Source of the DNA: an uncultured Bacteroidaceae bacterium | GTDB taxonomy: Bacteria; Bacillota; Clostridia; Christensenellales; CAG-917 | Length of the DNA stretch: 64,000 bases | NCBI GenBank assembly: GCA_964599875.1 | Contig: CAZRHE010000008.1 | Span: forward strand, 9,781 to 73,780 | Reading direction: 5' to 3' | Shown: piece by piece, positions 1,110-30,042 of the stretch | Numbering within the stretch: position 1 is the stretch's first letter | How the letters are laid out: each line of letters opens with the position of its first letter | Position numbers and translations under genes: made by a program | Notes under the pieces: generated by a model | What the model saw: only the letters and a program-made list of their open reading frames with translations | What the model was told of the DNA's origin: nothing | Databases searched by the model: none

Positions 1110-1136
1110 ATCGCCGTAAATTATCTTACGTTATAG

Positions 1137-1168: not shown

Positions 1169-1186
1169 TTATTCAGTTGTTTTTCA

Positions 1187-4100
1187 TCAACCGTTGATGG
1201 TGATGGTGTACAAGCCTTTGACCGCTTGTCCGACGGGGATTTCTTGTCCCGCGCTTACCGCGTAAATCGTTTCTCCGTTCACGGTCAAGCCCGTCGATCC
1301 GCTGTTGGCGGTTGCGACCGTGGTGTCGCCCACTCTGGACACGCTGTCAACGGACGCGCCGACGCATGCGTACAAGTAGTAGACGACCTTTCTGCCGCTG
1401 GGTGCGGAGAGGACGTATTCACCCGTATCGGATGCAAGCATTACGGAGTGGTGCGAGAGAGGGGTGCCGCCGATGCCGTAGGATACCGCGACGCCGTACC
1501 AAACGACGGGCACTCCGCCGACTTTGGTGTTGAGTTTATTGCCGCTGTACGAAGGCGTTTGACCGCTGACGTCCTTTCCGGTGACGGTGAACGGAATTGT
1601 AATACGTTCGCCGTTGCCGAGTTGGATAGTTGCGTTCTTCGCATCGCTCATGCCGTTCTTGAGGATGTCCGCAGTGAGGGAGAATCCGCCGGGCATGGAG
1701 AGCATCACGTAAGTGAATATCTTGGTGTCGTGCGTGCTGCCGGTCTTGTGGCTATCCCACTTCGTACCTTCGGTGGTGGTCGTCCAACCCGTCACCTTGC
1801 CGTTGGTCACGACGGGGTTCGAGATGTCGAACGTCACTTTGTACGCTTGAGGAATCGCGTAACTTGCGGTGTTGCCTGCGTCGATCGTGTAGGCGGACGC
1901 CGTATGGTTGGATACCGTCGCAGTGTACGGTGCGGAAGAGTAACGCGCGCTCGTAATCGTGCCGTTCGCCACTCTTTCTTCGTCGAGTTTGAACACGGTG
2001 GTGATGGACTTCGCGTACATTCTCTGGACGAGGAACGGAATCTCGAATTCTTGTGCGGTTCCGTCAGGACCGGTGAGGACTGCGATGAGGTAAATCATGC
2101 CGCCTTCATAGGTCGGGTTGAACTTGCTGAAGTTCCATGCAAGGGTGTAACCGTCGCTATTTCCGAAGGTCTTGACCTCGGTATCCGTCGAGCCGTTGCC
2201 CTTCGTCACGTTGACGTTGAGGGTATCGGGAAGCACGACGTCCTTGGAGAGGTATTCGTACGGGTTGATATAGGTTTGATTGCTTGCGCCGTAGAAACCG
2301 GTGTTCTTGGTCAAATCATCGTTTCCGCTTGCAAGGCCGGTGACCGTTCTGGGATTGACGACGAGGTTTGCGACCACGACTTGATCCTTGACGCCGTCGC
2401 CCTTGACGGTCGCTCTGATGAGGAAGGTGCCGCCTTCGTAGGTGACCTTGCTTGCGCCGAAGTTCCAAGTGACTTCCTTATTGACTCTGGTTCCGTTTTC
2501 GGTGACGATAGTCATGGAGTTCGGGAAGTACTTGTAGCCGATAGGTGCATAGAGCGTTCCGCTGTATTCGACGCGTTCCTTATCCGAGAGTTCGACGTAC
2601 TTGCCGTCTTTGAGTGCATATCTACCCTCGTTGTTCGCCTCGAAGATTTGTTCGAAGACGTCGGGAGTGGTGTACGGATCGAAGGTGAACACATACGTGT
2701 CGCCGTTCTTGCTCATATGCGACTTATCCGCACCCGCGACGAAGTCGCTGTCCGCGATGCTGACGGAGTTGACGATTGCACTGTTGACTTCGATAGGTAC
2801 GCGTACGGTTGCGTTTGCGTTGTTGACGACGCCCGCGGTAATGGTGACGGGGCTGGACAAGACCGCTTCGACGTAGGACGTTCCGCCGTTTACGCTGACG
2901 GTGGTATCTTTGGTGACCCACTCTGCGTTCAAGGTTTGACGTACCGTGAAGACGAAGACGTAAGTGCTTGCGCTATCGATGAAGTCGTCGTCGGAAAGGA
3001 CGGTGTAAGTTCTGCCCTTCGCGTTGTAGTGATAGTAGTACGGAGTTCCGACGCGTGCGCCGTCCTTGAGTGCTACTTCGCCGTTTGCCGCGACGGTGCC
3101 GTTGCCGAGGACCTTATAGATGTACTTGGAGGAATCGCCGAGCCACTTGACGTTTTCATAACCGTTCGCGTTCCATTCGTCGACGGTGATGAACTTGCCG
3201 TCGGGATAGAAGGTGACGGTATTGCTGTAATTTGCCGTGTTGTACGCGCTCTTTGCATCCGTATCCTTGGTGTAGACTTCGAATCCGGTGTAGTTGAGGT
3301 TGTCGGTGGAGAGTTTGGAGGACGCGACGTCACTGTTGAATCTGGTTACGTCGGTCTTCTTAATCGTGACCTTGACCTCGAGTGCGGACTTGCCGTTGAG
3401 GAAGATTTCGAATTCCTTCGCCTCGGTGGGATAGACGTGGAGTTTGACTTTGTGAGTGGTATTCTCGGTCACGTCGACTTTGCCGAAGAATTGTTCGAAG
3501 CCCTCGGTTTCGAGATAGTAGCGTCTTACTTCGCCCGCGCCGTTGAACTTGACGTCGAGATATTTCGGGAGCGAAGGATTGCCGAAGGAGTATGCGTTGT
3601 AGAAGACGACTTCTTCGGGAAGGTTGGTATCGCTGTCGTAGACGACGTCGATGACGTTGCCGAGATTTGCGTCCTTGCTACCGTAGGTAATCGCGTAAGA
3701 CGAGTAGCTATACTTGAGGTTTTCGGATTGTTTTTCGAATCCGTCGAAGACGAAGTTCGCTTCCTCTGCCGCTCTGGTGAGGACGGTGAGAGGTACGGTT
3801 ACGTATTGCGACGCGCCCATGGAGTAGCGGCTGCCGCTGTATCCGCCCTCGATATCCGCTATCTTGACGTAGCGAGGATTATCGATTCCGTCGTCGGTGA
3901 TATCCGCGATGCCGTATTCGCCGTCTGCGGATTCATAGTAGAACGTGAACTTAACCTTGTTGTTTGCGTTGAAGTAACCCTTGCTCGTAATGATGCTGTC
4001 GTCGGGCCATTCGGGTACGAAGTCGTACACGGTGCCGTCCTTGAGGGTTGCTTTGACGGTGAGAGGCAGGTTGAGTCCGCCTTCTCTGAAGGTGTCGTTG

Positions 4101-7100
4101 AAGAACGGATCGAGGATAATCGAGCGATATGCAGGATTGGTTATCTTCTTGATCGTTCTGTCGAGGATTTCGACGGAGATGGTTTGTTTCTCACTGCCGC
4201 CCGGATAGGTGAGGGTGACTTCGAGGTCGATAGTCTTGCCGAAGTACGCCGCGGTGTTGGTGTAGTAGTCTGCGGGCAGTTCGTACGTACCGATTACGGT
4301 TGCCGTACCGCCGGAGGCGGTTTCGATGGTGATTTCATCACCCGAGGCAAACAAAGTGGTATATACGTTGAACGGGTCGAGGAGCGAGCCGTTCAGCATC
4401 ACCGAGGTGATGCTGTCGCCCTCTACCGCGAGTTTGACGGCGACGTCCGCTATCTTCTCATCATGTAGTCTTATCTCGACGTTGACCGTTCCGTCTTCGT
4501 TGAGACCGCTCGTGATATTGCCGTTCTTGTCGTACGTAACTTTCCAGTTGAGGGATACGTCGTATCTGTTCGTACCTTCGGTTCCTACGACTGCGACTGC
4601 CTTGGTGGGCAGACCTTCGTAGAACTTATCCGCGGTGAGCACGTATCCGTCGGTCACGAGGTTTTCGATTTCGCCGACTTCGAGTCTGTAGTTGGTGTAC
4701 ACGACGAAGGTTACGTTGATTTCGCCGAGGTCGGAGCCGATATACGCCGTACGGACGAAGGAGCCTGCCGCGATTTCCGCATCGGTGGGTTTAGCATAAC
4801 TGTTCCACACAACGGGCACTTCCATTGCGGGAGTATTGTCCTTGAAGGTTACGGTTGCAGTATTGTACTTGCCTGCGAGATCCCAGTTGCCGAACGGCGA
4901 GTAGTAGTGCGTTTCGTCCTTGTTGAAGTTCGTTATCGTGCACTTGCTGACGTTCGCTTTGAGGTCTGCGACGGGTCTGTTATCTCCGACGAGATAAATC
5001 TTCGTTCTGAACGTGCCGTTGGTGGGATACGCAAATCCATCCACGTTGTAGAGCGTGAATTCACGATACACGTAAGTGCCGTTTTCGTCCGTGCGATAGA
5101 CTTTGTTGCCTTCCGCGTCGGTGACGAAGTCGGAGTCGAGTTCACCGGGTGCGCTGTAGTCCGCCCACGTAATCGCGCCGACTGCGGACACGGAGTTGAT
5201 TCCGAGTGCGTTGCCGAGGGTTGCGTAGATAGGCAATCTCCATGCGTCTTTGACGTTGTATTCGAACGAGTGCGAAATCATTTCGCCGTTTTGGAACTTG
5301 ATATCGGATGCAGAAACTTGTCCGCCGACGAATCTCAAGGTGCCGCCGTTTGCGTTGTTAAGGTCGAGGTCGATCTTGTTGACCGCGGTGGTGGGTACGT
5401 TGAGGGTGACGGTTTGTTTTTGATTACCGACTTTGAGGGTTACGTTTCTCTTTCCGCCTTGTGCGGTGAACGCGAGTGCGCTGACGTCCCATTCGTTGAC
5501 GAACGCGATTTCGCTGAAGGATTCTCCGCCGACGGTGTAAGTAATCTTAACCGCGGTGCCGTTTCTGTAATCGCCCCACGCGCCGACCTTGAAGTATGCG
5601 GAAGGATCGGTCACGTATGCGTAAGGCATGACGTTGTATTCAACGGTTCCGTTGCCGTCCGCCGCAGGAACGATGGTTTGTGCCGCGTAGCCGTCCGCAA
5701 CGTACTTGCTGATATCTTTGAGTGCGGATTCGCTCATCGTATTGATAAGTCCGCTGCCGTAGATATCCTTGCCGTTTTGGATGCTCTCGTCGTAGAAGAA
5801 CTTGACTTCGGAAATCTTCTTGACGGGTACGGAGAGTTTGAGGCGGATGGTTTGCGCGACGCTCTTGCCGTTTTCGTCGACGTAGTTGCCGATAGGATCG
5901 CCGTTTGCATCTCTACATTCCGCTTCAACGGTTGCATAGTACGTTCCGCCGTCGAAGATATTGTCTACCGCTTTGGTGTAAGTGGAGTTTGCGTAGTACT
6001 TAATCGTGCTCCAATCGGGGTACATGGTCTTGTCGACGGTGTTCTTCTCGCTGAATCTGACGTTGAGTGCGGTGTATGCATCCTCGTTGTACCATTCAGG
6101 ATTGAAGACGTCTTCTCTTGCAACCTTAACCGCTGTTTGAATTGCGGTCATGGAAGTCATGTTAATCTTGACGTAGACGGTTTGCGTGCCGCTGACGGAG
6201 TTGCCCAAAGTGAACTTGCCGTAGAGGTCTTTGCCGTCGTAACCCTTGTAGGAGTACGCAGTGTGTACGAGGTCGGTCGCCTTGACGTAATTATCGCCGT
6301 CCTTGTAGTAAGGCACGTCGAGGGACAAGAGGTTGCCGTCGAGTTGTACGTTGACTGCTTTGTCAACGCCCTTGAACTTGACCTTGAACGCGTTGCCGAA
6401 GACGGTGTTGTCGATTTCGTCGTTTGCGTAGACGTCGAAGGTGAGTTCTTTCTCAAGACCTTCGAATTCACGACCCGTGATTGCGATTCTGACGGGCACC
6501 GCTTGCGCGATATAGCCTGCGGACGCAAACTTATCCGAAGTCGAGCCGCTGCCGACGAAGCCGTAATTTGCATTGCCTTCATCGTCGTAACCGGTGACGT
6601 ACTTGAATTCGTTGCCGCCGACGTATGCGGTGACGGTGACGTCTATGCCCTTATAGTAATCGTAGCCGGTGATATTGCCGTTTTCATCCGTGACTGCGAT
6701 TTCTTTGAGTCTTGCTTCGAGTGCGGAGAGATCCCACTTGACCGAGAAGTCTTTGAAGCTCGAAGAACTGCTGCCCGCGGTGTACTTGCCGTTGACCTTG
6801 GTGAAGCCCTTGACGTACTCTGCGATGCTGTAGCCGTTGCCTTCGTTCAAGAAGGAATCGAGGCTGAACGCGTCGAGAGTGGTAAGAGTCTTCGTGGTGT
6901 GGCCGTTATCGCGAGTGAATGCGGTGAGCGAACTGATTTCGTTACCCGCGAGGGTGACGGAAACGGTGTCTTCGATTTCGTTCGAATAACCCCATTGATA
7001 GGTGAATCCGACGTCGATCGTACCGCTGGACCAGTTGTAAGTGAAGTCGCTCGTATCCCAGGTTATCCAGCCTGCGGGGAACGCCTTGCCCTTGGGCAGA

Positions 7101-10100
7101 TTGTTGTAGTTGAGTTTGACGTAAGTCGTTTGGGTATCGCCGGAAGAAACGGTTTCGGTCTTGACCTTATAGTAGGTGACTTTGCCGTCCGTACTTGCGT
7201 TGCCGCTGACTTTAACGTATCTGTCGCCGTCCTTGGTGAAGAGCGGGAATACGCCCGTTGCGGAGTTGTATTCGTTGATATCCGCAGTGGATGCGACTTC
7301 GTAATCCACGCCCGCCAGGTATGCGGGGATGAGTTTGTAGTTGTTGCCGTCACTGTTGGTGATTGCTTCGCCCGCGCTGTTGTTGCCGAGAGTCACTCTG
7401 TTGTTTCCGCTGTAAGAGATTGCGTAGAGCATATCTCCGTTCTTATCGGTGAGAGGTACGCCGAAGGTGAGATTGCCGTTGACGAAACTGAGTCGAGCAA
7501 GGTCGGGAAGATCCACGTTTTGCTTCTTCTTGGAGTCCGTCATATCGATGGAGAGCGCCTTATTGCTGAAGGAGCCGTCGCTGTTCTTGACGTATCCCTT
7601 GACGTCGGTGAGTGCGTATCCCGAAGTGACGTAGACGGGGATTGCATAGAGCACTACGTTGAGCGCGTAGCCGTATACGTAACCCGCAAGATATCTGCCG
7701 TCGCTTTCAAGGGTTGCCGCGGTGAAATCGACCGAACTTGCGTCCCAAGTGATGAACGTACCGCCGAGGTAGTCTTTGTCGCCGGTGTCGGTGACGCCTG
7801 CCGTGGAAGTGGTGCCGTTGAGCGTCCAAGTGACGTCCGCCTTTTGCGGGAAGATATTCTTATTCTCGAGGTAGGTTTCGTTGAGAATAATGTTGTGGTT
7901 GCCCGCCGTACCCTCTCTGGTTGCAGGGTCGGTGATGATGATTTCGGTAGGCGCTTCCACTTCTCCGTCCATAACGGTTGCGGTTTCGCCTTCGAGGAAT
8001 CCGAGCATACCCGTCTTGGTCGAGGACTTCGAGTTGGAGAGCGGCGTTATGCGGAGCACCGTCCAATCCCAACCGCCGAGCACGTTATCTCCGCTGACGT
8101 TGCCGAGAGCGTCGGTCATAGTGTTGGTGCCGGTAGAGGTTTGTCCGTAAACTTGACCGGTCTTGACTCCGTCCGTGTTTCTGTTGTAAGTTCTGACGGT
8201 AGAGCCTGCGCCGACCTTATCCGCGTTGACGTAGAGTTCGATTGCTTGGATGCCTCTGAACATCGTGACGTCGTTGCCGAGGTTGTAATCCGCATTCTTC
8301 GGCGCAAGGTCGATATAGATATTCGCGGTAGGATCGCTTGCGAATTCGTTCACGAAAGGCAACGGCAATATCGTTGCGATCAAGTGGCCGATATTTTCAA
8401 GCGTATCCAGTGCCATTGCAAGACCCGCGAGGGTGTTGATGTTATCGACGCCGAGGTCGGGAATGATATCCTTTATGAGCCATTGATAGAGATAGACGGG
8501 GATACTACGCGCATAAGGTTCGATGAGCGCTACTCTCTTCACGGTCTTCTCGTGTGCGGAAATGTTTTCTTTTCCTATCGCTTCGAGTTGCTTGAAGAGT
8601 TCGATAAGCATGTTTTGACCGTTACCGCCGATGTTGTAATTGTCCATCGATTGTCCTCTGTCGTGGTTCAAGCCGAGTTTATTGATATCCGCGAAGTAGT
8701 ATGCCTCGTGCTTGTTGGCGTCGATGACGTCTTGGAACAAGGTGAGGACGAGGACGTTGATCATGACCATCAATTCATTGAAGGCGTCTTTGCCGAAGGT
8801 GATCTTGATGGAGATATATCTCGTGTCGTCGGATGCGGACGGATTGAGGTCGGTCATGCCCGAATAGTACGGGATATATCCGTTGCTGTTGAAGAGGTTG
8901 ACCTCGAGTTTTTGGATGAGACCGGTGAGGTCTGCGGAGTACGAGTAATCTGCGTAGTTAATTTCGCCCGAGGATGCCGCTTCGCTTGCAGGATATGCGT
9001 AAGTGCCGTTGTCGCCGTCTTCATGGCTGGTGAAGCTTGCGAACGCGCCGTAGGGGTTATCGTCGGACACACTGCCTGCGACTGCGATACCACCGACGGT
9101 GTCGTTGATGATTCCGTTCAAGAAGTCGGAAGACAAGTCGACGTCTTTGATGATGATGCTGAGGTTGTTTTGGAGGGTCGCGCCTGCAATGAGGTTCGTT
9201 CCGCTACCTGCGTTCTTCTTCGGGTGATCGACGTCTATATAGAGATAGAGTTTGTACGGGTCGTTACCACTGCCCCAGGTCTTGATTTCTCTGCTGAGAT
9301 CGAGTTCCGCGTGGGTGGTGGTGAAATACGACATAAGTTTGGTGCCGTCGCCGTTGAAGATGGTGTTATTGCTAAATCCGGTATCCGCCGTCCACACTTT
9401 CTTATCGATATCGATACGGAGTGCGGGATTGAGGTTGTCGAATATGTTGTTGATGAGCGAACTGAGACCCGCGGTCGTCGAGTAGGTGATGCCCGCGTAG
9501 CCGTAACTGACTTCGCCTATCTTATCCGCGACGTTGATCTTGTTGTTGCCGATTTCGATGCTGAGGTCCTTGATTTCGAGAGCGAGCATGGTGCCGACGC
9601 TGTCGAGGATTGCGGTGACGCCCAGTTTTTCAAGACCGGTCAAGAAGTCGTAGAGCAATTCGACGGATGCAGATTGCAAAGGCATTTCGTCGAGGCTGAT
9701 GCCGAGGGACGAGAGGTCGAGCCCGAGCAAGCCGATAACCGAGTTGATGAAGTTGGTGTCGATATTGAGTGCAATACGACCTTCTTCGATATCAACGTTG
9801 AGTGCGAGTTTATTGCTCGCGCTTGCACTGCTTTCCGCCTCTGTGGAGAGTGCCTCGTTTGCGGACTTCGCATAGTTGGTCACGTAGTTCTCCGCGTATT
9901 TTTGTTTTGCGCCGAGGATACCTGCGAAGCCTTGGAACTTAATCTTGCCGAGACCGAGACCGCTTGCGTCGATATAGAGCGCGTCGTTGATTGCGGTGCC
10001 GACCATTTCGGTAGTCAGTTCGTAAATGGAGCCCGTGTTCTTAAGTCTGGACGAGCCGAGATAGTAGACGGACAAGAATTTTTCGGACATCAATTCGCCG

Positions 10101-13100
10101 ATGGTGATATCGAGTGCGATATCGCTATACAGGATACCCGAGATACCGTACGTGAGGATTGCGCCGAGGTTGATATCCGCGGTGAGCGCGATATCGATCG
10201 TGATAGGACGTTTCGGGAAGTTGAGTTCGATATCCGCGACTACGAACTTGAACTCGCCGTTGTCGTCCGCCTTGTATTCGCCGTCCACGTAGGAGTATTT
10301 TTGTCCGTCGTAGCCCGCTTCCGCTTTTTGGAAGGTGCCGAACATTCCCGTGCCTTCGAAGAGTCCGCCGAGCAAGTCGATGACCCATGCGACGAAGGAG
10401 TTTTCATATCCTGCATCCTCCTTCATAAGTCCCGCGGAGGTTATCGTAAGGCTGATAGTCGTGCTGAGGCTGACGGTGGAAAGACCGATTTCGCCGGTTT
10501 CGACGTTATACGCCTCTGCGTAAGGAATATAGTACTTGCCGTTAAGTGCTTCTTCGAAGTGTTCTTCAACGTACTTGTACGCGCCGTTTTCAGCGGTGAC
10601 GTAAGTGCCGTCCGCACGTTTTGCATAGCGTTGTCCGTCGTAATCGGATTCGGTGATTTCGACGTATGCGCCACTTATCTTGTTGTATCTCTTCGCGTCT
10701 TCCGCAGAACTGACGTATTCTTCGAAGAGGTTGTCGACAGAGTATCCTTTGACTTTGTGGCGGTCAAGACCGAGTTCCACTATGTCGAGGGATGCGTAGA
10801 ATCCTTCGGTGAACTTCGCGGACAAACTCATGACGAAATCTCTGCTATCAGAATGATAGTAGGTCTTGCCGTCTTCGAGTTTCGTGCCGTTGAACACGGT
10901 GTAAGTGTCGCCGTTCTTCACGTAGACGGTGCCCGAGAACTTGCCTTCTGCGAAGAGTTGTCTGTCGTTCGCGCTCATCACCGCGTAGGTGTTGGGCACG
11001 TAACCGTAACTCTCGATGAGGATATCGCCGAGGTTCGGGATGAGGTCGCCGAGTTCTTTGCCTTGACGTTCGTAAATCTTGTTCGCGACTGCGTTGATGA
11101 CTGCGAAGGACAAGCCTATCGAGAAGTATTGAGGATGTATCAACGCTTCGAGATATGCATAGTCGTGGAGATCCATTCCGCCCGCGGTTTGCGCGTTCGC
11201 CGCCATTGCTTCGGAACCGCTTTCCGCAGTGTCGTCGCCAAAGAGTCCGCCGAGTGCGCCTTCGATGAGTTCGGTCAAGCCGAGTCCGCTGAGGGAGAGT
11301 TTCGCAGTGCTGCCGAGCAAGTGGCTTGCATCGATATACACGCTGTCGTTGTAGAGATAGACTGCAAGGATAGGATCGGTGTTGAGATATCCGTTTTCGT
11401 CGTATTGCAAGATTTCGAGCATCACTTGCATCGCGCCGAAGTCGGTGAAGTCGATGAATGCGCTCAAATTGATTCTTGCAGACGGATAATCTCTGCTGCC
11501 GAGGTCGTTGGTTATGTTGATATTGAAGTCGGAGCCTGCGAGGTCGCTTTCGGGATTGATGAGTCCGAGGATGAGGTCGAGGAGTTCGCCGAGTTCGACG
11601 ACGTTCTTCGTGCCGTCCGCAAGCGTTGCACCGCCGTAGTAAGAGAGGTCGATGCCGATGCTTAGGTTCATCGAGGACTTCTTAATATCCGCGTAGTCGG
11701 TTATCGCCATTCCGTCTTCGTCAAGGTAGGTGTAAGAGCCGTCCGCGTTGTATTGGACTTTGTCCGCGCCCACTTGCATGGTGTCTTGGTTTGCCCAAAG
11801 TCCGAGTCCGTGGAGTTTGATTTGGAGACCGAGGTCGCCGATTGCGATATAGTCACCCGCCGTCTTGACGTCGTAGGTGTTGTTCGCAGTCGCGGTGAAC
11901 GCCGTTGCTCCGAGTCTGTTGTAGGTGGAAATCAATACGTATTCGGTGCCCGCGCTGTCTTTGACGATTGCGTCGTTTGCGCTGAGTTTCGCATATGCGC
12001 CGTCGCTATTCGTGATGACCATAAACTTGCCGAGGCCGTATGCGTTCTTTGCAAAGACGTTCTTTTGCGTCGCGTAGTCGAACACTTTCGTGAACTTGAA
12101 GTTGCCGTCCGCGTCGAATCCGTCGAAGTTGTAACGGTCGCCCGTCCAAGAACTAATCCATTCGCCTTCGGTGTAATCGTCGTGTACGGGGGTGCTTGCG
12201 GATGCGTACGCATAGTTTGCGAGCACGTATTCTTCGGTTTGGAGCAACACGTAGTTGCCGTTTGCCGCCTTCGTGTAAGTGCCGTCCGCGTTCTTATTGT
12301 ACTTCGGCAAATTGTCCGCGTTGACTGCGTGTTCGTCACGGAGTACGTCGAGGGTTACCCAAGATTCCATACCTGCGACGAAGCCGAGGTTGACGAGGAT
12401 GCTGGGTGCGCCGCCGCCGAGGTCGATAACAAGACCGCTTGTGTTGATATCAGAAGTTTGAACGAGTCTGGGCAGATATTCGGTGACGTCCGCGAGATCC
12501 GCTACGAGCATTCCGACGAGGTCGCCGATGAGGCTTTCGTTAAGTCCGACAGCGACGATATCGTTTGCCACGAGGATTTGTCCGAGGAGCATTCCGATGA
12601 TATTCCAGACGTCCGCGCCGAGCAAGTCGCCGACAAGACCCATATTCGCTTCTTCGTCCGCGCTTGCTTTCGCACCTGCCGCTTCGTATGCGGAACTATC
12701 CGCACCGAGGAGACCGCTGACGTCGAGTCCTTCGAGTTTGAGTTTGCCGAAGAAGTCGCCCATGCCGACGATATCGTTCATATCTTCGAGGTTGAGATAG
12801 AGATTGATCTTGCCGTCGACGATTTGCGCCCAAAGTTCCGCAACCGCAGTGTTGAATTCACCGCTTGCGTCCGCACCGTGGAAGTTGGTGTCGTATTCGA
12901 TTCTGATATACGCTTCGAGGCCGTTGAGTGCGTCGAACAATTCTCCGCCGTTGACTATGTAATCAACGAGGTTCTTGATATTAAGACGTGCTTTGATATC
13001 GATACCCGCGCCGATAGTGCTTTCGAAGTCGCTGTTTCTCCACTTCATGGAGGAGAGGATGAATTCGAAGTAATCGTAGAGGTCGGTGGAGATGAACTTG

Positions 13101-16100
13101 GTCATCTGCTCGGTCCAGTTGATGATATCGTTGAGTTTGAGGCTGAGGTCGAGGCTGAGGTCGATTTCCGCGCTTTCGAGGTCACCGAGGAGAGATTCGA
13201 TATCGAGGTCCGCTCCGCCGAGCAAGTCGCCGAGGTTGAGGGACATGATCTTCGAATAGTTGGTGAAGTCGGAAACGGGTTTGTAGTATACTCCGCCTTC
13301 TTCGACGTCCGCGCCGTTTACGAGCACGAGGTCTTTGATATCCGCAAATTGTCCTGCGGGTTCGGTGCCGACGTACTTGTAGAGGTCGCCCTTGACGGTG
13401 CTATCCCAAACGTTGCCGTCTTCGTCGTAGAGTTTTTCGTCAAGCACGCGCACGAACTTGGTTTCGCAACGCTTGTACACCCACACGCCCATCGCGACTG
13501 CGTTGTTGAACGCCGCCTCGTTTGCGTATACGGTGGTTGCCTTGACGTAGTACTTATCGTCTACCTTGACGACGTCGATGCCGTTTTCGGACTTCGCGTT
13601 GCCCACTTTGACGTATGCGTCTTCATATGGCGTCTTGTCGTCGCGAGTGAAGTTTGCATAGTAGAAGTGATAGTTGTCCGCCGTGTCGGGATCGGTGTCG
13701 TAGGAGTTTTGATAGGTGTTGTTGCGCTTATTGAAGTCTTCGATCGTACCGAAGTCGATGACTGAACTGTCTTCGGTGCCGTTGAAGAGTTGCAGTTTGA
13801 CGAGCATGTCGAGAACGCCCTTTTCGCCGTCTTTGTCGAAGAGTGCGAGGTCGATGCCGATAGAGTACGGGCTGAGTTTGAGGTCAACGCCGACGGTGAA
13901 GTTCGGGAGGATATCTTCGTCGATATCGACTCCGAGCATGCCGAGGAGCAGGCTGACGAAGCCCTTCGTCACTTTGAGTGCGAGAGTACGAGTGTAGAGG
14001 TTGACGTACAAGCCTGCGAGAGTAGGATCCGCATACTTGCTTGCAACTCTGCCCTGTGCGCGTCCTTCGTCCGCCGCGAGTGCGTCGCTTTCGGATTCGC
14101 CGAAGGAGAGAGAGCCGTCGAGGAGGCTTGCAAGGAGTTCTTCAACCGAGTAATCGCTGAGGTCGATTGCGAGTTTCGCGCCTTCGCCGAGGAGCCATTC
14201 GAGATCGACGTTAAGTCCTGCAAGACCGGTGTCTTCGTCGCGGTTGTAGTACAAACCGAGCATATGGGTGAGAGTGCCGTCCGCACCGTTTGCCGCATCG
14301 TTTTCACGACGCCACACGTCGATTGCGAGATCGAGATCGAAGACGTTCATCTTGAATTCGGGCACGAAGTCCATTCTGAAGGACAAACCGATCTTGATTT
14401 CGAAGAGCACTTCTCCGCTGAAGTCTTCAAGGACTTGGAGTGCGATTCCGTCGAGGTCGCCGAGCAATCCGCCGAGGACTTCCGCTACGTTGGTTTCAAC
14501 GCCCGTGGAGTAAAGCACGTAGTCGTTTTCTTGGAGATCCGCGCCGTCTGCGAGTTGTTTATATCCGCCTTGATACATGGTGTATCTGTCTTCGGGTTTG
14601 ACGTACACGGAAGAGGACGGATTGTTGATATCCGCCAGCGTGTAGGATGCGCCCGTCGCGTTGAGAAGGTCGAGATAGTCGCTTACGGATACGTAATCGT
14701 AATATCCGGTGACGTAGATGCCTCCGCGAATGGTGAGGGAGATATAGAACATATCGTCGGTGTCGACGTAGTTGATTTCATTGCCGCCGTCGTAGAGGGA
14801 CATCGCGACGACTTCCGCTCTCGTTGCGTCGAAATCGTTGGTCCAATCGTCGGAATCGTAGTTGCTTGCAAGATATTCCGCAAGTTTAACGTACGTTCTG
14901 TTCCATTCGTCGTACACGTAGTATTCGATTTGTTCCGCAGTGTAACGAGGCATATTCGCAAGGTTTGCAGCCGCACCCGACGCCTTGACGAATTGATTGT
15001 TCGAGTAATCCCAAACGTAATCGCCGGTGCCGTCGTTTTGAGTGGTCACGTATGCGTTGCTTGCTTTTTCGATAATGTTCTTGCCCGTCGCGCGAACGTA
15101 GAGTTCGTCGTCGGTGAGTTCGCCAAGACCGTATTTCTCGCGATTTTCCGCGGTATTTCTGACGTAAACGTCGCGATATTTCTCTTGTTTGTAGAGGGTG
15201 TCCGCAGTGAGTTTGATACGAGGATAGTATCCGAGGTCTTGGAGTTTGATTTGCAGATAGAAGTTGTATTCCGCCGCCGCTCTTCCGAATTCGTTGCCCG
15301 AAGTGAAGTCGATCATTTGACCCGCTTCGAAATCGACGGTCGTGAAGAAGTCTTTGACTGCAACGTATCTGCCCTCTGCGTAGACGTAGAGGTTTTCTGC
15401 GACGATGGGATAATATTCGCCGTGATAGTACATGTAGCGGACGTTATCCGTGTAATTGTCGTAGATATCGATATCGTGGTCGGTGGTGCCGTTGGGCGTG
15501 CCTTCGATCCACTTATCCGAACTGTTCATATCGCCGACGAAGGTGTAGAGATAATCGTCGATCTTGAAGTATTTCGCGCCTGCGGGTGCCGCTTCGCCGT
15601 ATTGTGCTTCGTATTGGTCGGGAGTTATGTACTCTTGTTCTCTTGCGCCGAATTCGGGGAATCCGATATTAAGACCGACTTCGTATTCCCACAGATAGAG
15701 CATGAGGGACACGAGAGGCTTTCTGACGCCTTCTTCCTTGACGGAAACGAGCATATCGTCGTATGCGATTTGAGTGAATTCGTAATACTTATCCACAGGA
15801 GAATCGGGAGTTACTCTCTCGTATTGACCGTCGCCGACGTGATAGTACACGTTGGTTGCGGAAGTTGCTTCCTGTCTTTCGAAGTATCTGTAATCTCCGG
15901 TTGCTCCGTCTCTTTCGGCGTTCTCTTTCTCGAAAGGAGTCGCCTTGGTGAGGAGTTGATAATAATCCGAACCGCTGTTGACTATCTTGATATACGCTTC
16001 ATAGGTGGAGAGCGTGTAGTAATGCTTGGTGCCTGCCGCTACGCCCGCCTCGTAATTTGCGACTTCTTCTTCGGAGAGTCTGCTTGCCATTTCCGTTCTG

Positions 16101-19100
16101 AGATAGTAAGTAGTCTTGCCGTTGGATTCAACCGCATAGTAGGTGCCGCCGATATCGTCGATTTCGTATGCAAAGCGGAAGTCGGATTGTCTTCTCTCGT
16201 CCGCGTCGGTGCCTGCGTAATCTTTGTACAGATACGTGGAGCGGTCGGTATTGATTTGCAAGTACGGTTGCTTGGTGAAGTTGTAATCGAAGTGCAAACC
16301 GTCCTCACCGAGAAGGAGTTCGAGGAGCGCGTTGATATAATCCGCTTGTACTATCGCGCGGATATAAGTGCTGGTGATTCTGAGTCCCCACACGAACGCG
16401 GTGACGTATGCCGCGATATCGTCGCCGAGGAGCGGGAGTTCCGCCGCGGATGCCGCAGTGGTGGTTTCATCGGATGCGAGTGCTTCGTCGCTTTCGTTAG
16501 CGCCGCCGAAAACGCCGGGAAGGAGGTTGCTTGCGATGTCGCGGAGCGAGTAAGAATTGATATACACGCTGGGAATCGAGAAGTAACTGAGGTCGACGTA
16601 AAGACCGCCCTTCACGCGTTTGTAGGTGCCGTTATCGTTTTGATAGAAGTACGTGGAGTCGTAACTGTATCTCTTGTTGCCGTAGAGCATCAAATCTGTG
16701 GTTACAGTCACGAGTTTGTATTCGCCGTCCGCGGAGTCGTAATAGTAATCTCCGTTCTTGGACTCGAAATAATGGCTGTATCTGTCTTCGGGTGCTACGT
16801 AATCGTCCTTTGCGGGATTGATTTCGTTTGCGGTGAGTTTTTCGAATTCGCCGCTAATCATGTAGATGCCGAGGAGAGTACGGGTTTCGCTCTTCGCAAT
16901 AGAGGAATCGTGATCCTGTTTGTCCATTGCGGTAGAGTTGAGTATGACGGACGCATTGATGAAACTGAGCAAGTCGCCGATGCTGAGTTCTTTGCTCGTG
17001 AATGCGTTCTTGATGATATTGAAGAGGTCGATTATCGACAAGTCTTCGTCGAGGTCGCCGACGTTGATATTGACTTCGTATTGACGGAAGTAGTTGACGA
17101 GTGCCGCGAACTTGATTTCGACGTTGATGATGAGTTCCATCTTTCTGTCGAGGTCGCCGTTCATATCCGAAATTGCCGAGATTTCCGCTTTAAGTTTGTC
17201 GGGATCCGCGTCGGGGAAGAGCATTTCGAGGACTGCGCTCAAATCTATATCCGCATCCTTCTTGAAGGAAGTCGTGATATCGATAACTTCGGTGAGAGTG
17301 ATACGATCGAGTTCGGTGATTTCTTGATATTCGGAGAGTTCTTCCGCCGAGAGAGTGTATTCGTGCTCGGTGGTGAATTCAAGGGACACGTTGCGGACGC
17401 CGACGAGGAGGCTGAGTTCCGCATCGTAGCCGTTGCCGTTTGCGGGATAGCCCGCTTGACGACGATAAACTATCGTGCCGTCTTCTCTTGCCGCGGTGTA
17501 ATCCTTTCTTTCGTATCTTCTTTCTTCGGAAACGCTGTCGTTGGGCGCAAGTTCACGGAAGGAACCGTCGTCAAGACGATAGTAGTTGCCGTTGTTGTTT
17601 TGAGTGAAGACGTAATCTCCTTCGATTCCTTCTTCTTCGTCCTTAACTGCGGGGACTTCTCCGTCCGCGAGTTGTACGTAGCGGTCGCCTTGGATGGATA
17701 CGGTCGCTCCGATTTCCACGTTGACGCCGTCGTTGATATCGAGGTCAACGTCCGCACCGAAGATGAGGTCGTCGGGAATATAATCCGCAAGGTCGAGTCC
17801 GTCGACGAGCATTTCGATAATCGTGCGGAGGAACTTGTTCGCGATATTGATAGAGAGTGCGCGTCTGTTGAGGAGCAACAACACGTCGATATCGTCCGCG
17901 CCTACTTCGCCCGCCGCAAGTGCGTCGCTGGATGCATCGCTGTCGGGAAGTACGTTATCCGAGTACGAGCCGTTGAAGATTTCGCCGAGATATTTCTCGA
18001 TGAATCCCGCGACTACGCTGGAGGTGATGCTGAGTTTGGGAAGATTGAGGAACGGCACGTCGATATAGAAGACGTTTTGCACGTAATATGCACCGAGCCA
18101 GAGATTTTCCGCACCCGTTTCGGAAATGTTGATGAGTTCGACTTTGATTTCCGAATTGAGGATTTGCGAGAAGTCGAGCATGACGCCCGCGTCAAGACGG
18201 AAGTGTGCCGAAGAGTAACCCTTTGCAGTGGAAGGAATGTCAATCTTGACGCCTTCGAGGTTGCCGAGGAGTTTTTCGAAAATCATACCGAAGTCGATTT
18301 CACCTTCGGTGATGCCGAGTTCGAGTTCAACCGAGAGGTTGAGGGACACGCTGGATTCATAGAACGGGCTGAGTGCAACGTAATCCTTTCCGTCCCTGCT
18401 CGTTTCGTTGAGTATGTAGGAAGGAATGAGTGCGTCGCTTGCGCCGAATCCGAGGTCGAGGCCGTTGAGTTTAAGACCGATATCGATTGCGTTTGCAGTG
18501 ATATTAAGACCGATCGCGAATTGTTTGAATTGCGTGTAGTAGTCGGGTTGTCTAAAGTAGGTGCCCTCTTTTTCTTGGACGTAACCGAAGTATCTGTCCA
18601 TGAAGGTATCCACCGCGACGTAACCGCCTGCGAAGATATAGTAAGTTTCGTTTTGGTCGTAACCATTCTTCGCGATTTCGACGGTGTCCGCTTGTTCATA
18701 GTTGACGCCTTCTCTGACGTAGAGCGTGTAACGCTCGGTGTCGAAGTGCTCGTCTCCGTTTGCGGTCGCTACGGTTGCGTATCTGCCGCTTTCCTTATTC
18801 TCTTTCCAAACGATTTCGTCATAGTATGCGTATCTTTCGTCGGTGGGAAGGATGAGGATGAAGCAATCCGCGTTCGCGCCGTCCGCGATATAGGTATCGC
18901 GTCTGTAATACGCGCGTTTCCAATCGTCTGCGGAAGTGGTTTCGTCCGCTTTTGCGAAGGTCACGTCGTATCTGGTCGCGCCTGCGGGGATTTCTTCGTC
19001 TGTTTCCGCGAAGATATAGTAATTTCTGTTGTTTTCCGCGTTTCCGCCGAGGTTGATGCTTTCAAGATAATATCTGCCCGCCTCGTTTTCGGTCGCGGAT

Positions 19101-22100
19101 TCGACGTAATATGCGTCGCCGTCGTTGAGTTCTTTAATCGCCGCTACGGTGTCCGCCGCGAAATCCGTATAGGTATACTTGCCCGTTTCCATTCCGAGAG
19201 AAACTTCGAGTTTGTCGAAGACTTCTTCAAAGGAACCGAGGTCGGGAAGAAGTGCGCTCACAAGAAGGGAGATGACGGATTTGGTGATGACGATTTGAGT
19301 TGCGACGTCGGAGTGGATGAGGCTGATGATTGCGTTTCTTTCAACGTCGTAATCGGTTGCCGCAGAATCCACGTCCGCAGTGTCGATATCTTCTTCCGCC
19401 GCCGCAAGTGCGTCCCCTTGTCCCGCCGCATTGGTGCTGTCGTCGCCGCCGATGAGGCCTGCGAGCAAGTCGACGAAGTTGGGCACGTAGGAGTACACGT
19501 CCGCAACGTCGAAGATTTCAACGCCGTTGAGATAGAGATTGCCGTTATAGAGATAGATTCCGCCCTTTGCAAGGTAGTTGCCGTTGCCGTCGGTGAGAAC
19601 GTTTCCGTCGTCGTCCGTTTCGAGGATTTCGAGTGCGACTTCGAGGGTGTTGAGGTCGCTGTTTTCGAGGAATGCGTTCATATTTCCGCCGATGAGAGAT
19701 GCAAGGTCGAGTGCGTTGAGGTCGAGTTTAAGACCCACTCTGATTGCAAGGCCGTCGTGGAAGGTGGAGCCGGTCTTCGCGGTGAGAACCATATCTCTGA
19801 TATAGTTTTCGAGCAGTCCGCCGAGTTCGAGAGATTCGATGTCGTTGCTGTCGAAATACAGGCTCAAATTGAGTCCGAGATAAATGCTTTGCGTTCCGCT
19901 TTGTTCGGAAGAGGGAGTGCCGTTAATCATTCCCATTATGTTCTCGACGTAGTCGGTTATGTCGACGAAGTCCGCTTTTTCGAGTTCGGACAAAGGCGTG
20001 ACGTAATCTCTATCCGCGAGAGTAATATCGAATCCAAGACCGAGTTTGACCGCGATATTCACGCCCGAAATCGTGTTGAGTCTGATTCCGAGAGAGAGTT
20101 TGTCGTCGAGGTCAGCGTCTTTCCAAGTGAGGAACACGCCGCTTTCCACTTCGTCGAGGTTGAGCATGTCGAGGTCGAGATCTTGACCCGTCAACGCTCC
20201 GACAAGACCGGTGATGAACGTGGAGTTGAACAAGATATCCAGTCTATCCCAGTTGTTGTACCAGTATTCGCCGTTTCTGTAAATTGCGGAGCATCTGAAG
20301 ACGATACGTTTGACGACCATGTTGATATAGTCGATGATGCCGAGTTCGCCGTCTTCCGCCGCAAGCGCCGCGCTTTCGCTCGTTCCGCCGATGAGTCCGA
20401 TGATATAGTCGAGACCGACGGTAAGTCTGGGTCCGCCGAGGTCGCCGAGATCGACGTAGAGGTCGCCGTCGATGAGATAAATGCTAATCTTCGCTTCGTT
20501 CTTCTCGCCTTGATTCATAACGAGTTGCACGCCGACTTGGAGTGCGGACAAGATTGTGTCGAGGTCGAAGTTGAAGTTGTCGAAGTCTGCGTCGAGAATG
20601 GAATCGAATCCGAGTTTTTCGAGGTCGATTGCGCCGAATATCTTGAGGACGATATCGTCGTCGAGAGGATCGTTCAAGTAAATATTGAGTCCCAATCTTT
20701 CGATGAGTGCGGTGATTATGTCTTTGACCGTACCCGCTTCCATTCCGCTGATTGCGTTCTTAATCGCATCGATGCTGAGGATTGCGTCGATGAGATCGTT
20801 GAGATCGATAGGATCTTTGATATACAAGCCGTTGGGATCTTGTACGTATCTGCCGTCCGAAGTGCGTTTGGAGTAGCGTTCATCGTCGGGATAAAGCCCC
20901 GCAACTTCGCTGCCGACGAGAGTAAAGGTCGGGTTCAAACTGTATTCGAGGACGAGTTCGAGGGAGAAGGACACGATTTTGTTTTCGCGATACTTGTTGA
21001 AACGACCGATTCCTTCTTCGCCCGTGTATCTGTAATAAGTGGTGCCTTCGACGTAAGTGCCTTCCGCGTTAATCGCGTACGCGCCATCCTTATATATATA
21101 CGCGTGCGCGGGGTCGAGGTACGCTTCGTTGCCTTCGGTCATCTCCTCTGCCGTCAACGCGACGTAGTTTGCCGCCACTTGATATTGATACAAGGCGTTT
21201 TGGATTCTTTCGCCGACGGAGTCGAACGCTTTACCCGCAGTGATGCAAGGTTGTTTGACGTAAACACCGAGATTGAGGAGAGTGCTTTCGAGGTCGAGTG
21301 CGAGTTCGACGTTTTCGAAGTCGATATCGAGTCCGAGTTCGAGTCCGAGGTCGGGCAAACGATCGAGGGATTCGCCGATATCACCCGTGGTGCCTTCTTC
21401 GGAAACAAGGTCGACGACGAGTGCGATTATCGTGAGAATGACTTTTTGGCTGACGACCAAGGAAATATGTTCGCTTGCGATTCCGAGAACGATTTCGAGC
21501 GCTTCTTCCGCACTGACCTTTCTTTCTTCAGCGGACATTGCTTCGCTTTCGTCGCCGTTTTCTTCACCGAGCAATCCTTTGATTGCTTCGACGAGTTTGT
21601 CGATGAGGAGAGTGTCTTCGATGAGGACGTCTTCATCGGACAAAATGCCCATATCGATCATGATGACGCCGTCGTAGAGATAGACACCGAGAATGTTTTC
21701 GTTCTTGACGAGGTTTCTGATTTCGAGAACGATTTCGGTTTCGGACGAGTTTTCAAGATTGAGGTTTGCACCGAGATAAAGTTCCGCATCGAGGACGATA
21801 TCCTTTTCGATTTCGATACCCGCGGAGAGCAGGAAGTCTGCTATGAACGCGGAAACGAGGTCGTTGACGGGAAGTTCTTTATTCGTTCTGTCTTGAGTGT
21901 CGAGCAATTCGAGTTTGAGTTCAAGAGCAAGTTCGACCGCGATGGTGTCGAAGTTGTCCTTGCCGACGTAATTGTCGGGCTCGATGGGATAATATTTGTT
22001 TTCAACGGTGTTCGCATCCGAGAATCCGATCTTGATTCCGCTGAGGGTAAGACCGACCGCAAACGGATCGATACCGACCATCAAATCGAGTTTGTAAGGA

Positions 22101-25100
22101 TTGAATCCCAAACGGAGATAACTGTTGTCCGTATTGAGAGAGATAAAGTCGGTGGAAAGTCCCGATGAGCCGTAGTTGCCCGTCATGCTTTCGACGTAAG
22201 ACGTGGATTCGTCATCCGCCACTTTCTTTTCAAAGCGAGTGCCGGTGTAAGTGCCTCTTTCTTCACCCGTCAACTTCTTGTATTCGACGTTCTTGAAGTA
22301 CGCACCGTCTTCTCTTTCGACGTATTGACCGTCTACGTATGCGTATCTGACGCCGTCGAAGTCTACCGCCGCTTCTTTGTAGGTCACTTCGGGTTTGTAT
22401 TCGCCCGTGGTGGAGAGATAATATTTGCCGTTTATCTTCTCGTATCTTTCGCCCGTGTAAGTACCGAGTTCCTCTGCGGTGAGTTCACGATACGCCATAT
22501 CGGGGCTGATGAGTTCGATGACGGTTGCGATGAGCGTGCTTGCAAGATAGACGGTGATGCTTTCACTACTTGCGTTAAGTCCGCCGATAAGGCCGCCGAC
22601 GAGTCCGACGATAGTGTCGATGATGCTGTCTTCTTCCTCTTCCGCCGTTTCGTCCGCAGACGCAAGTGCCTCGGAATCCGCACCGGATTCATCAGAAGAA
22701 CCGCCGATGAGTGCGCCGAGGTTGAGGTCCGCTATCGCGATATGTACGTCTTTGAGGAGATCGATTTCACTGTCGATATAAAGGGTTCCGGTCGCAACGC
22801 CTGTGGGTTGAGAAGGATCTTCGCAAAGAAGAGTTATTGCAAGAGATCTCTTCGTCGCACCGTTTGCGATTGCGTTTTCGTCGTACTCTCCGTCGAATAT
22901 CTCTATAGATATATCAGAATGAGAGAGTATATAATTAATATCCGCTATATTATCCGCGTTGAATCTCAACTTCGCGGAGATACGGAATCCGAGGGGTTGA
23001 GATACGTCGTACGGGATATCGAACGCGAGCATGAGTCTTTCGAGAAGTCCCGACACGCTTTCGTTGACGGAGCCTTCGGAAAGGAACATGGAAATCCAGT
23101 CGCCGACGGGCCAGTTATCCGCGTTGCTGAACGCGTCGAGGTGAATGGTGCCCGTGAGTTCGAGGAATACTTGGTCGATGCTGATGGTCATATCACCGTT
23201 TTCATCTTTGCCGAGGAGGCTGATGAGGGTGTATGCGTCGTCCCCGGAAGTCGTAAGACCCGCAAGAGGATCTTCCGCGTTCGCACCGAAAGGTTCAACC
23301 GCTTTTACGGTCTTGCTGATTGCGAGTTCGGGGTGTTTGAGAGAAAGGCTCAAACTGCCGGTTACGTTGTTGTTGGAATCTTTGATTGCGCCTTCGATGG
23401 AAAGAAGGTTATCGCTTGCGAGTTTGCTCCACGCAAGTTCGAGTGCGACGTCCATCATAGGCACGTTGATGCCGACGGTGCTCCAAAGGAGTTCCGCAAG
23501 ACCTTGCAAGAGGTCGACGCGGAGTGCGCCGTCCGAAATCTTGAGTGCGATAAGAAGCGCTATATCGAACTTGGAAGAATCGTAAACCATATCTTCCGCC
23601 GCAGATTGTGCCGCAGAATCGTCGTCGCCGCCTGCGATGAGATCCATGATAAGTCCGAACAAGTCGATATCGACCGCGACTTTTTCAATGCCGAAGTTCT
23701 TCGCGTCGAGATATACTTTGCCGCCCACGTAGTAGACGCCGAGGATAAGTCTGTCTTCTTCGTTCTTATACGCACCGTTCTTGACGAGTTCGATAAGGAT
23801 TTGAGATTCGTTGCCTTCGGTGGAAATCTCTTTCGCGCCGAGCAAGTAATCCATGAGAGGTTTAAGGTCGAGGGACGCTTGGATATTGAGGGTGTAATCC
23901 ATCAAAATCTGCTCTTCGAACACGACGTTGCCGCCGTTGCCGAGAGGAGTGCTACCCGCGTTCATCGTGGATTGAAGTCCGAGTTCAAGACCGAGATACA
24001 CGTTGGGAGTTTCGAACAAATTGACCCACAAATCGTCGTATTCGGAGGGAGGAGTAAGTCTGGACGCCGTGTCGGGAACTTCGTTGAATCCGAGGGTAAG
24101 TTCACCGAGCGACAAGGACAATTCGACGTCGTTGCCTACGCCGAGATACAAGAGGAGTTCGAGTTCGGAGAGGTTCAAACCATCCGCAAGGGTGATACGA
24201 ACGCCGCCGTAAGTGCTTTCGTCGATAAGGTTGCTGGAGATATTCGTTCCGACGAGTTTATAATACTTGTCGCCTGCGGAAAGTTGCGCGCCGTTGAATA
24301 CGCTCACTACCCCGTTTTCGTCCGCAACGTACACGGTTTCACCGAAGTTGCCGTTGTTGTACGCGGCGATTTCATCGGAATCGAGTTCCACGAAGTTTTC
24401 GAGGTCGGTGGTGACGCCGAGGAGTTCGAACACTTTCGCGATGAGGTTGTTGACGAGTGCGACTTCGAGATAGTTGTCGCCGAGGGTTACGCCGGTGATA
24501 AGTCCCGCGATGACGGAGATGATTTGACTGGTATCTCCGCTCTCTTCGGAACCTTCGGTCTCGTCGGACGCAAGTGCTTCGGAATCTCCGTCGCCGCCCG
24601 AAATGAGTCCGATAATGGTGTCTGCGGGTATTGCGATATTAAGTCCGCCGAGAACGTCCTCTCTGGTGTGGAGATAAATCGTGCCGCCCGAGAGCCATAT
24701 ATCTATTCCGTTTTCACTCTTGCCCGTGTCGCCGAGCCCGATATGGAAATCGGATTTGAGGATTCCGAGAATATCGAATTCGCCGTTTTCGTCGAGCAAG
24801 TCCGCCATATTGAGCCCGATATTCGCTTCGATGACGAGTTTGCTGGTTTCGTCGAAGGTCTTTGCAAACGCAACGAACGCTTGAACGAGCACGTTGCTTC
24901 CGCTTGCCACTTCGAGATTGCCGAGTTCGCCTTCGAGCGCATAGAGGTTAATAGTCGTGGTCAAGGACACGTAAACGGTGTCGAGTGCCGCGAGAAGTGC
25001 GTCTACAAGTGCGCCGCCGACGTCGTCCGTGCCGGATATGATTTCGCTGATATCGAAGTTGATATAGTCGGATTTAGACGCGCTGATTGCGCTCAATTTC

Positions 25101-30036: not shown

Positions 30037-30042
30037 TTAGGA

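Follow-up and report, generated by a model that had tools for sequence, protein, structure and literature searches.

A 25.9-kb gene of uncultured gut Clostridia encodes an 8,628-residue, probably lipid-anchored surface protein with apparently undescribed repeat modules

Giant extracellular fibers are a familiar category among Gram-positive bacteria. The giant adhesins built of tandem immunoglobulin-like (Ig-like) domains include a 7,651-residue adhesin of Mobiluncus mulieris (PMC10619420) and Ebh/Embp of staphylococci (PMC9302970). Another set, Giant1-5 of Apilactobacillus kunkeei, are extracellular proteins of 3,000 to 8,000 amino acids (aa), of which Giant1-3 form rods of alpha-helical repeats, with a beta-solenoid at the N-terminus and an SH3b-like end that binds the wall at the C-terminus (PMC12863079). 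Giant genes of Clostridia have been described by West-Roberts et al., with RCC1, Listeria-Bacteroides, YG, dockerin and leucine-rich repeats (bioRxiv 10.1101/2023.11.21.568195). Here, we analyze a 25.9-kb gene for an 8,628-aa protein that fills ca. 40% of a 64-kb stretch of DNA (contig CAZRHE010000008.1, positions 9,781 to 73,780; the whole stretch is referred to below as the window, and all coordinates are window positions). We give about an even chance to the explanation that the product is a giant cell-surface fiber of a monoderm gut Clostridium, lipid-anchored, in which the stalk is conserved and the Ig-like tip varies. Both the protein family and the fold of its modules appear to be undescribed.

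The window protein resembles the Mobiluncus adhesin and Ebh/Embp in its size class (7 to 10 thousand residues), in having a Sec signal, in being acidic and Cys-poor, and in carrying a long beta-sandwich array presumed to project a binding region. Those adhesins consist almost entirely of recognizable, closely similar repeats and end in a C-terminal LPXTG/transmembrane anchor, whereas two thirds of the window protein is a non-Ig alpha/beta array of very divergent repeats that has no Pfam match, and its lipobox is N-terminal. With Giant1-5 it shares a host-associated Bacillota origin, a sequence mostly without recognized domains, elongated repeats known from prediction and a presumed adhesive role. 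It differs from Giant1-3 by its alpha/beta modules, lipobox, acidic motif-bearing loops and C-terminal Ig-like array, and no sequence relation to Giant1-5 was detected, the HMMER scan described below having returned only family members. The giant Clostridia genes of West-Roberts et al. (bioRxiv 10.1101/2023.11.21.568195) were rejected as members of the same family, their repeats being of other types. Proteins of the AsmA/TamB/YhdP group and the VPS13 repeating beta-groove (RBG) proteins are also very long, with an N-terminal membrane anchor and repeated long amphipathic beta-strands, but the window protein has no Pfam or Foldseek match to them, contains 24% helix, is interrupted by 13 acidic loops and comes from an apparently monoderm host. 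As for RTX/type-I-secreted adhesins (LapA, SiiE and MpIBP type), there was neither a Pfam match nor any near-identical repeat, and the export signal is of the Sec/lipobox type instead.

The minus strand of the region is occupied by a single uninterrupted open reading frame (ORF) of 8,647 codons (1187 to 27130), a length effectively impossible by chance. Read from ATG 27073, it yields 8,628 aa followed by a TGA stop (coding sequence 1187 to 27073, minus strand), in agreement with the preliminary description of this DNA, which had been made from the letters alone. The predicted product has a mass of 943 kDa, an isoelectric point (pI) of 4.2 and only 12 Cys (0.14%). A ribosome-binding site, GGAGGA (27079 to 27084, minus strand), lies 5 nt before the ATG, and Shine-Dalgarno (SD) sites like it precede many window genes; upstream is a sigma-70-type promoter, TTGACA-17-TACAAT (27135 to 27163, minus strand), that matches 11 of 12 consensus positions. 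Both signals had been pointed out before and were read directly from the sequence again. At the other end, an 18-bp stem-loop without a clear T tract (1133 to 1172, minus strand) starts 15 nt past the stop codon and is a possible terminator. Comparison with the closest orthologue (L001, 77% amino acid identity over aligned codons) gave 0.16, 0.11 and 0.37 differences at sense codon positions 1, 2 and 3, respectively. The peak at position 3 indicates that the minus-strand frame is translated and under purifying selection.

Five long plus-strand ORFs of 670 to 2,792 aa overlie the same region (1226-4468, 4907-11665, 11753-13765, 13790-22168 and 22325-27052), antisense genes are called there in the public annotation of one orthologous contig, and the exact 8,628-aa product found no match in a collection of ca. 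15 billion proteins. All this could be expected if the giant frame were an artefact or a pseudogene, whether through mis-assembly of a repeat, through chimerism or as a shadow of opposite-strand genes, a possibility that we find scarcely credible. All five plus-strand ORFs place their codon position 1 on sense position 3, which is the register of shadows, and they exist because the sense strand is nearly devoid of TTA, CTA and TCA (0, 3 and 2 codons, respectively; 5 in 8,628). These antisense ORFs are therefore shadows of the giant gene. Only the minus-strand frame is uninterrupted and equipped with signal peptide, ribosome-binding site and promoter, and its third codon position is the most substituted. 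The window has no runs of Ns and the giant gene no direct DNA repeats longer than 50 nt (those found are 60 to 80% identical), so that repeat collapse or expansion is not a concern and mis-assembly is unlikely. In addition, full-length products were called in ten other assemblies. On these grounds the artefact reading was rejected; the gene is real and intact. In the public record CAZLVK010000009.1 (locus L013), what is annotated of the orthologue is a C-terminal piece of 1,044 aa, accompanied by antisense genes, and the apparent break in it is not a frameshift but a run of Ns. Protein databases thus contain too few members of the family, antisense shadow ORFs having been called in place of the giant gene in at least one public record.

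To find relatives, a segment of the N-terminal part (aa 401-1500) was compared with 5.8 billion proteins in a word-indexed search, which gave three fragments, all without Pfam domains and one of them named as a hypothetical protein of a Clostridia metagenome-assembled genome (MAG). A HMMER profile was also run exhaustively against 1.84 billion representative proteins and returned 45 matches, all of them family members and none from any other family. Ten of the 45 are full length (6,529 to 7,924 aa), and no member seen is larger than the window protein. Scanning one genome from each GTDB species revealed 12 orthologous loci (L001 to L012), all in uncultured gut MAGs from sources that include roe-deer caecum, sheep colon and rumen. 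In 11 of these loci the orthologous frame has no stop between its start and the last base retrieved, over at least 4,769 codons, and in the remaining one (L008) the contig stops after 1,432 open codons. The orthologues are colinear over the full length. In most bins of 300 aa the identity is ca. 20 to 48%, with lower values for the most distant orthologues; bins rich in insertions depart from this, as does aa 6900-7400, a segment missing from most members. The intact ORF, promoter and ribosome-binding site, the excess of variation at position 3, the 12 syntenic orthologues and the full-length colinearity together argue for purifying selection on a real gene, which is conserved and vertically inherited.

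The 12 loci are labeled Clostridia or Christensenellales, apart from three third-party annotation (TPA) records labeled Bacteroidaceae. The closest relatives, L001, L002 and L003 (CAZLVK010000009.1, CAZWUI010000001.1 and CAZJZV010000004.1), have 71 to 73% identity and the same synteny and carry the label "uncultured Bacteroidaceae bacterium." Because the window has SD sites and a -35/-10 promoter and the other relatives are labeled Clostridia or Christensenellales, the Bacteroidaceae labels on these three records are probably wrong. The giant protein belongs to a small uncharacterized family found only in uncultured gut Clostridia.

Domain searches agreed with the earlier statement that the family is an unrecognized one. 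Pfam and NCBIfam gave zero significant matches on the whole window protein, PHROGs gave nothing, and sequence and profile searches of the PDB gave nothing at an E value below 0.9. Pfam was equally silent on N-terminal orthologue fragments. In total, ca. 6,300 of the 8,628 residues have no match in Pfam, NCBIfam, PHROGs or PDB, and no enzymatic, toxin, secretion-system, ligand-binding or wall-anchoring domain was found in the protein.

The N-terminus of the protein, MKKLKIALLMVLVVCLTACFFACN, starts with a signal peptide and lipobox (aa 1-23; 27005 to 27073, minus strand) made of a charged n-region, MKKLK, and an h-region, IALLMVLVV, with a Kyte-Doolittle (KD) maximum of 2.6. All 12 orthologues start with MKK(L/V)K, continue with a hydrophobic run and then have (F/V)AC(N/S). 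The lipobox pattern [LVI][ASTVI][GAS]C is matched by LTAC at C19, a canonical lipobox present in only some of the sequences, and the invariant Cys of the alignment is C23, in a site with Ala at -1 in 13 of 13 sequences. The lipoprotein-type N-terminus proposed at first is thereby found in 12 of 12 orthologues, with the refinement that the conserved candidate for lipidation is C23, C19 being the alternative. Next comes a Pro/Asp/Thr-rich low-complexity stretch of 35 to 50 aa, a putative tether (aa 24 to about 60; 26894 to 27004, minus strand) of similar composition in the orthologues. By hydropathy, only the signal peptide resembles a transmembrane helix, the eight further hydrophobic stretches (KD 1.65 to 2.28) being post-linker or core elements, mostly with charged residues. 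The C-terminus (...GLYTITING) has no LPXTG-like motif near its end and no hydrophobic segment, and the whole protein has no match to SLH, CWB2 or choline-binding domains (Pfam for all, NCBIfam also for SLH and CWB2), so the lack of these elements described before was found again by motif, hydropathy and domain scans. The n-region, h-region and conserved lipobox Cys, the Pro-rich tether next to them and the lack of any other transmembrane-like segment or LPXTG motif point to export and anchoring, while the low pI and Cys content point to an extracellular character. Judging from these sequence features, the giant protein is probably lipid-anchored on the cell surface. The genes lgt and lspA are not in the 64-kb window.

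Behind the anchor lies an array of 13 divergent alpha/beta modules (aa 24-5737; 9863 to 27004, minus strand), supported by junction alignment, hhalign and an AlphaFold2 model. The modules start at aa 24, 507, 831, 1153, 1467, 1842, 2233, 2553, 3049, 3529, 4329, 4794 and 5285 and are 314 to 800 aa long, the variation being due to Tyr-rich insertions. Their divergence is such that BLAST detected almost nothing between them (19 non-self matches over the whole protein) and phmmer matched only modules 3 and 5. When sub-alignments of the modules were compared by hhalign, modules 1 to 10, 12 and 13 were mutually related at 90 to 99% probability, module 11 (aa 4329-4793) reached at most 61%, and the central region that follows the array at most 24% with any module. 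The three-part layout given in the preliminary description (homologous N-terminal modules, a unique center and Ig-like units) therefore stands as regards the 13 junctions, the homology of 12 of the 13 modules and the distinct center; the parts that do not stand so firmly are module 11 and the C-terminal units, few of which are demonstrably related.

The largest Tyr-rich, poorly conserved insertion, rich in indels, is found in module 10 (aa 3587-4192; 14498 to 16315, minus strand). Smaller ones are located at about aa 1506-1636, 1948-2053, 2627-2870, 3393-3530, 4449-4527, 4922-4984 and 5440-5542, in modules 5, 6, 8, 9, 11, 12 and 13. They contain 12 to 13% Tyr, with motifs such as YTGxRY, DGxY and RYSYD, and no other part of the N-terminal region is as poorly conserved or as rich in indels. 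At the level of motifs (RYSYD, GVRYAYVDGQY) they presumably resemble degenerate YD/RHS repeats, which we take as a lead only; RHS_repeat gave no Pfam match at E ≤ 1.

To obtain a structure for the modules, aa 508-1480 were modeled with AlphaFold2 from an alignment of 36 family sequences. The model (mean predicted local distance difference test [pLDDT] of 67.9, predicted template modeling score [pTM] of 0.47, 517 residues at pLDDT ≥70) is alpha/beta, with 33% strand and 24% helix. The extended beta-sheet, solenoid or groove suggested previously for these modules is not what it shows, and neither Pfam nor Foldseek produced a match to a beta-helix, an RBG groove or AsmA/TamB. Its strands of 10 to 14 residues are strictly amphipathic, with one face 67 to 100% hydrophobic and the other 0 to 25%, and its helices are hydrophobic. 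Foldseek searches of the model against PDB and BFVD gave nothing at E < 1e-3. The polyketide synthase (PKS) dehydratase/thioesterase hot-dog, BFA1, LolA and the major histocompatibility complex class I (MHC-I) platform were rejected as folds, with TM-scores (template modeling scores) of 0.1 to 0.26 and root mean square deviations of 14 to 27 Å.

Strands of this kind, in a protein membrane-anchored at one end and with LolA (probability of 0.63) and hot-dog folds among the weak top Foldseek matches of its modules, might suggest a conduit for lipids or other hydrophobic ligands in the style of bridge-like lipid transfer, the 13 modules lining a channel from the anchor to a partner cell or surface. 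We regard this as very improbable. AsmA, TamB/DUF490, Chorein_N, SMP, LolA and Lpt had no Pfam match at E ≤ 1, a mimivirus Chorein_N protein appeared among the Foldseek matches only at E = 0.1 and probability of 0.03, and the TM-scores and deviations just mentioned do not correspond to real superpositions. Shielding the sheet is probably all that the hydrophobic helices do, as in ordinary two-layer alpha/beta domains. Moreover, the host seems to be monoderm and to lack a second membrane that could be bridged, and the array is interrupted 13 times by disordered acidic loops.

The 13 junctions of the array share a common pattern, "...LG.YY..G.LY.D...G..K," a helix ending in LL.GG, an acidic low-complexity loop and then a very hydrophobic helix plus strand, so that at the end of each module a conserved hairpin leads into an acidic loop that is disordered (pLDDT < 50 in the model). 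The loop contains the motif SEA(L/M/V)(S/T/A)(A/S)(A/D)(D/E), exemplified by SEALASDETE at aa 831-840 (24554 to 24583, minus strand). The other twelve junction loops begin at aa 507, 1153, 1467, 1842, 2233, 2553, 3049, 3529, 4329, 4794, 5285 and 5738, and the 13 sites together span window positions 9833 to 25555. A regular expression for the motif matched 10 times, compared to 0.73 matches expected from shuffles, and the motif recurs at orthologue junctions down to 22% overall identity. Possible roles are cleavage, docking or helix capping.

Conservation of a motif in loops that are otherwise of low complexity and predicted to be disordered is not expected of a mere spacer. It could be explained if the product were a polyprotein or processed precursor in which the 13 motifs are protease cleavage or docking sites, giving mature modules of ca. 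35 to 90 kDa that stay non-covalently associated or are released. Surface lipoprotein adhesins of Mollicutes, which undergo extensive processing at short motifs, offer a precedent. Such processing seems to us quite improbable here, as no conserved protease gene adjoins the giant gene. The conserved elements flanking a loop could pack into one domain that would stay together even after cleavage, and the motif may merely cap a helix, such as the short one modeled by AlphaFold2 at aa 1154-1161. More far-reaching, and in our opinion distinctly doubtful, is the possibility that the 13-module array is an architecture not seen before, a family of folds of ca. 320 residues without relatives in Pfam, PDB or BFVD whose function depends on the loop motifs, so that the 943-kDa product would be either a lipoprotein precursor turned by programmed processing or assembly into a multi-piece surface machine or, in a monoderm bacterium, a hydrophobic conduit of ca. 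100 nm leading from the membrane to a partner cell.

The array is followed by a unique central region (aa 5738-6349; 8027 to 9862, minus strand) that is unrelated to the modules and conserved among the orthologues. Its AlphaFold2 model has low confidence (pLDDT mostly 25 to 60), and includes a bundle of helices near aa 6095-6235. After the center, the C-terminal region (aa 6350-8628; 1190 to 8026, minus strand) is rich in beta structure and made up of divergent Ig-like units; it is the least conserved part and varies in copy number. For aa 6370-6820, AlphaFold2 predicted beta-rich domains with pLDDT mostly of 70 to 89 and some lower blocks. Foldseek of the C-terminal model against PDB gave nothing at E < 1e-3, and its best, non-significant matches were protocadherin ectodomains and the S-layer proteins SbsB, SbsC and EA1, all of them strings of Ig-like domains. 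The best Big_4-like unit of the window protein (PF07532; aa 8182-8225; 2399 to 2530, minus strand) scored 15.7 bits, below the gathering cutoff of 22.1 bits. One unit of orthologue P0048 exceeded this cutoff (29.9 bits); in orthologue P0047, which aligns locally with the C-terminal 1,100 aa of the window protein at 74% identity, Big_4 scored 18.3 bits. The Ig-like nature claimed for this region thus finds agreement in the beta-rich model, in the orthologue above threshold and in the weak Foldseek matches to Ig arrays. Several units show the pattern V.W....y.GG.y.l.a.v, and hhalign among 130-aa windows of the region related a few pairs at 60 to 84% probability (around aa 7190, 8055, 8200 and 8310). 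Most of the ca. 20 units have no detectable relation to Big_4 or to each other, and with only a few related pairs the count of Ig units is not a rigorous one.

The codon usage of the gene bears on how much of this protein the cell might make. Its relative synonymous codon usage (RSCU) correlates with that of fusA (r = 0.94), secA (0.89) and tuf (0.78), all identified by Pfam like the other reference genes, and more weakly with that of the GH20 (0.68), BspA-like (0.38) and AEC (0.29) genes of the window. The likeness to translation and secretion genes noticed at first sight was therefore reproduced in numbers, and the codon usage is native and strongly optimized. TTA, CTA and TCA add up to 0.6 per 1,000 codons, about as few as in tuf, fusA and secA, versus 6 to 26 in most of the ordinary window genes compared. 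Both observations, together with the conserved synteny among the 12 genomes with an orthologue and the presence of SbsB, SbsC and EA1 among the weak matches of the C-terminal model, would fit an abundant envelope scaffold or coat, S-layer-like or sheath-like, in which the protein is a major structural component and not a sparse adhesin. We consider this unlikely. Strong codon bias in very long genes can reflect selection for accuracy or processivity rather than abundance, there is no SLH, CWB2 or other lattice- or wall-anchoring domain, and all the Foldseek matches are non-significant (E > 1e-3). The rapid turnover of the C-terminal units also fits ligand recognition better than packing in a lattice.

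The lipid-anchored fiber that we favor would be assembled as follows. The giant protein would be exported by Sec and acylated at the conserved Cys of the (F/V)AC/N lipobox, which would fix it in the outer face of the cytoplasmic membrane, with the Pro/Asp/Thr-rich tether after the anchor. The 13 alpha/beta modules (ca. 5,700 aa), linked by disordered acidic loops with one conserved short motif each and bearing variable Tyr-rich hairpin insertions, would form a conserved stalk that takes the remainder of the protein across the wall and past it. The conserved central domain would cap this stalk, and the ca. 2,300 aa of fast-evolving Ig-like (Big_4-type) units would be the distal, ligand-contacting end, for which host or dietary glycans or partner cells are candidate ligands. 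Since about three quarters of the protein has no known domain or solved structure, we infer rather than observe its fiber or adhesin role, as well as lipidation, surface location and rod-like geometry, and the placement of the Ig units at the far end of a fiber is likewise presumed. An adhesin-like logic is suggested by the Big_4 units, by the weak likeness to cadherin and S-layer Ig arrays and by the conserved cores as opposed to a variable tip and insertions, conserved stalk and variable tip being typical of stalk-plus-tip giant adhesins (PMC10619420, PMC5550230).

Several points weigh against such a fiber. No ligand-binding, enzymatic or cell-wall-binding domain was identified in the giant protein, the stalk fold has no known counterpart, and its rod-like shape is assumed. 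In many members the conserved lipobox has a non-canonical Phe at position -2. An N-terminal lipoprotein anchor is also unusual for a Gram-positive adhesin of ca. 1 MDa, as most use a C-terminal LPXTG or transmembrane anchor. Finally, the conserved motifs in the linkers suggest that these are more than passive spacers, and the very strong codon optimization could indicate an abundant structural coat rather than a sparse adhesin.

The genomic context is that of an ordinary chromosome, as had been described. Domain searches found a Mem_trans/AEC permease and a GH20 hydrolase flanking the giant gene and, further along the window, tuf, fusA, rpsG, secA, metK and nusG (Pfam). A block upstream of the giant gene (27440 to 35593) is conserved in most of the 12 loci, with iPGM, a 647-aa protein, a 194-aa membrane protein, an HGSNAT-like acetyltransferase, a 184-aa membrane protein, GH20 and a 285-aa protein in this order. 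There is no evident functional link between the block and the giant gene, and the 285-aa protein has no Pfam match. A mobile element, a toxin locus and horizontal transfer were rejected in view of the conserved housekeeping and glycan-metabolism context and by the native codon usage.

Three other features of the window deserve mention. A protein of 804 aa that combines BspA-type leucine-rich repeats with a Listeria-Bacteroides (Flg_new) repeat (35757 to 38171, minus strand) is a probable second surface protein; the codon usage of its gene is far from that of the giant gene (RSCU r = 0.38; G+C content at third codon positions [GC3] of 0.44). Two adjoining proteins of ca. 433 aa (39235 to 40533 and 40659 to 41960, minus strand) each have a stand-alone Condensation domain (PF00668), and no adenylation or carrier domains were found near them among the ORFs scanned. 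A ribosomal protein L10 leader (RF00557, 58.8 bits) is located at 44595 to 44726 on the plus strand, with tuf, fusA, rpsG and nusG close by on the minus strand.

Compared to the known giants, this family stands apart by an N-terminal lipobox in place of a C-terminal anchor, by 13 divergent alpha/beta modules of ca. 320 aa that have no relative in any library searched, by acidic loops that bear a motif and by variable Tyr-rich insertions. It would represent a new repeat-module fold and probably a new way to build and anchor a giant surface structure in Gram-positive bacteria. A 25.9-kb gene that is kept intact, syntenic and codon-optimized across a clade of uncultured animal-gut Clostridia implies a heavy investment by its hosts, and the giant protein may be what lets these bacteria adhere to host mucus, feed particles or partner microbes.

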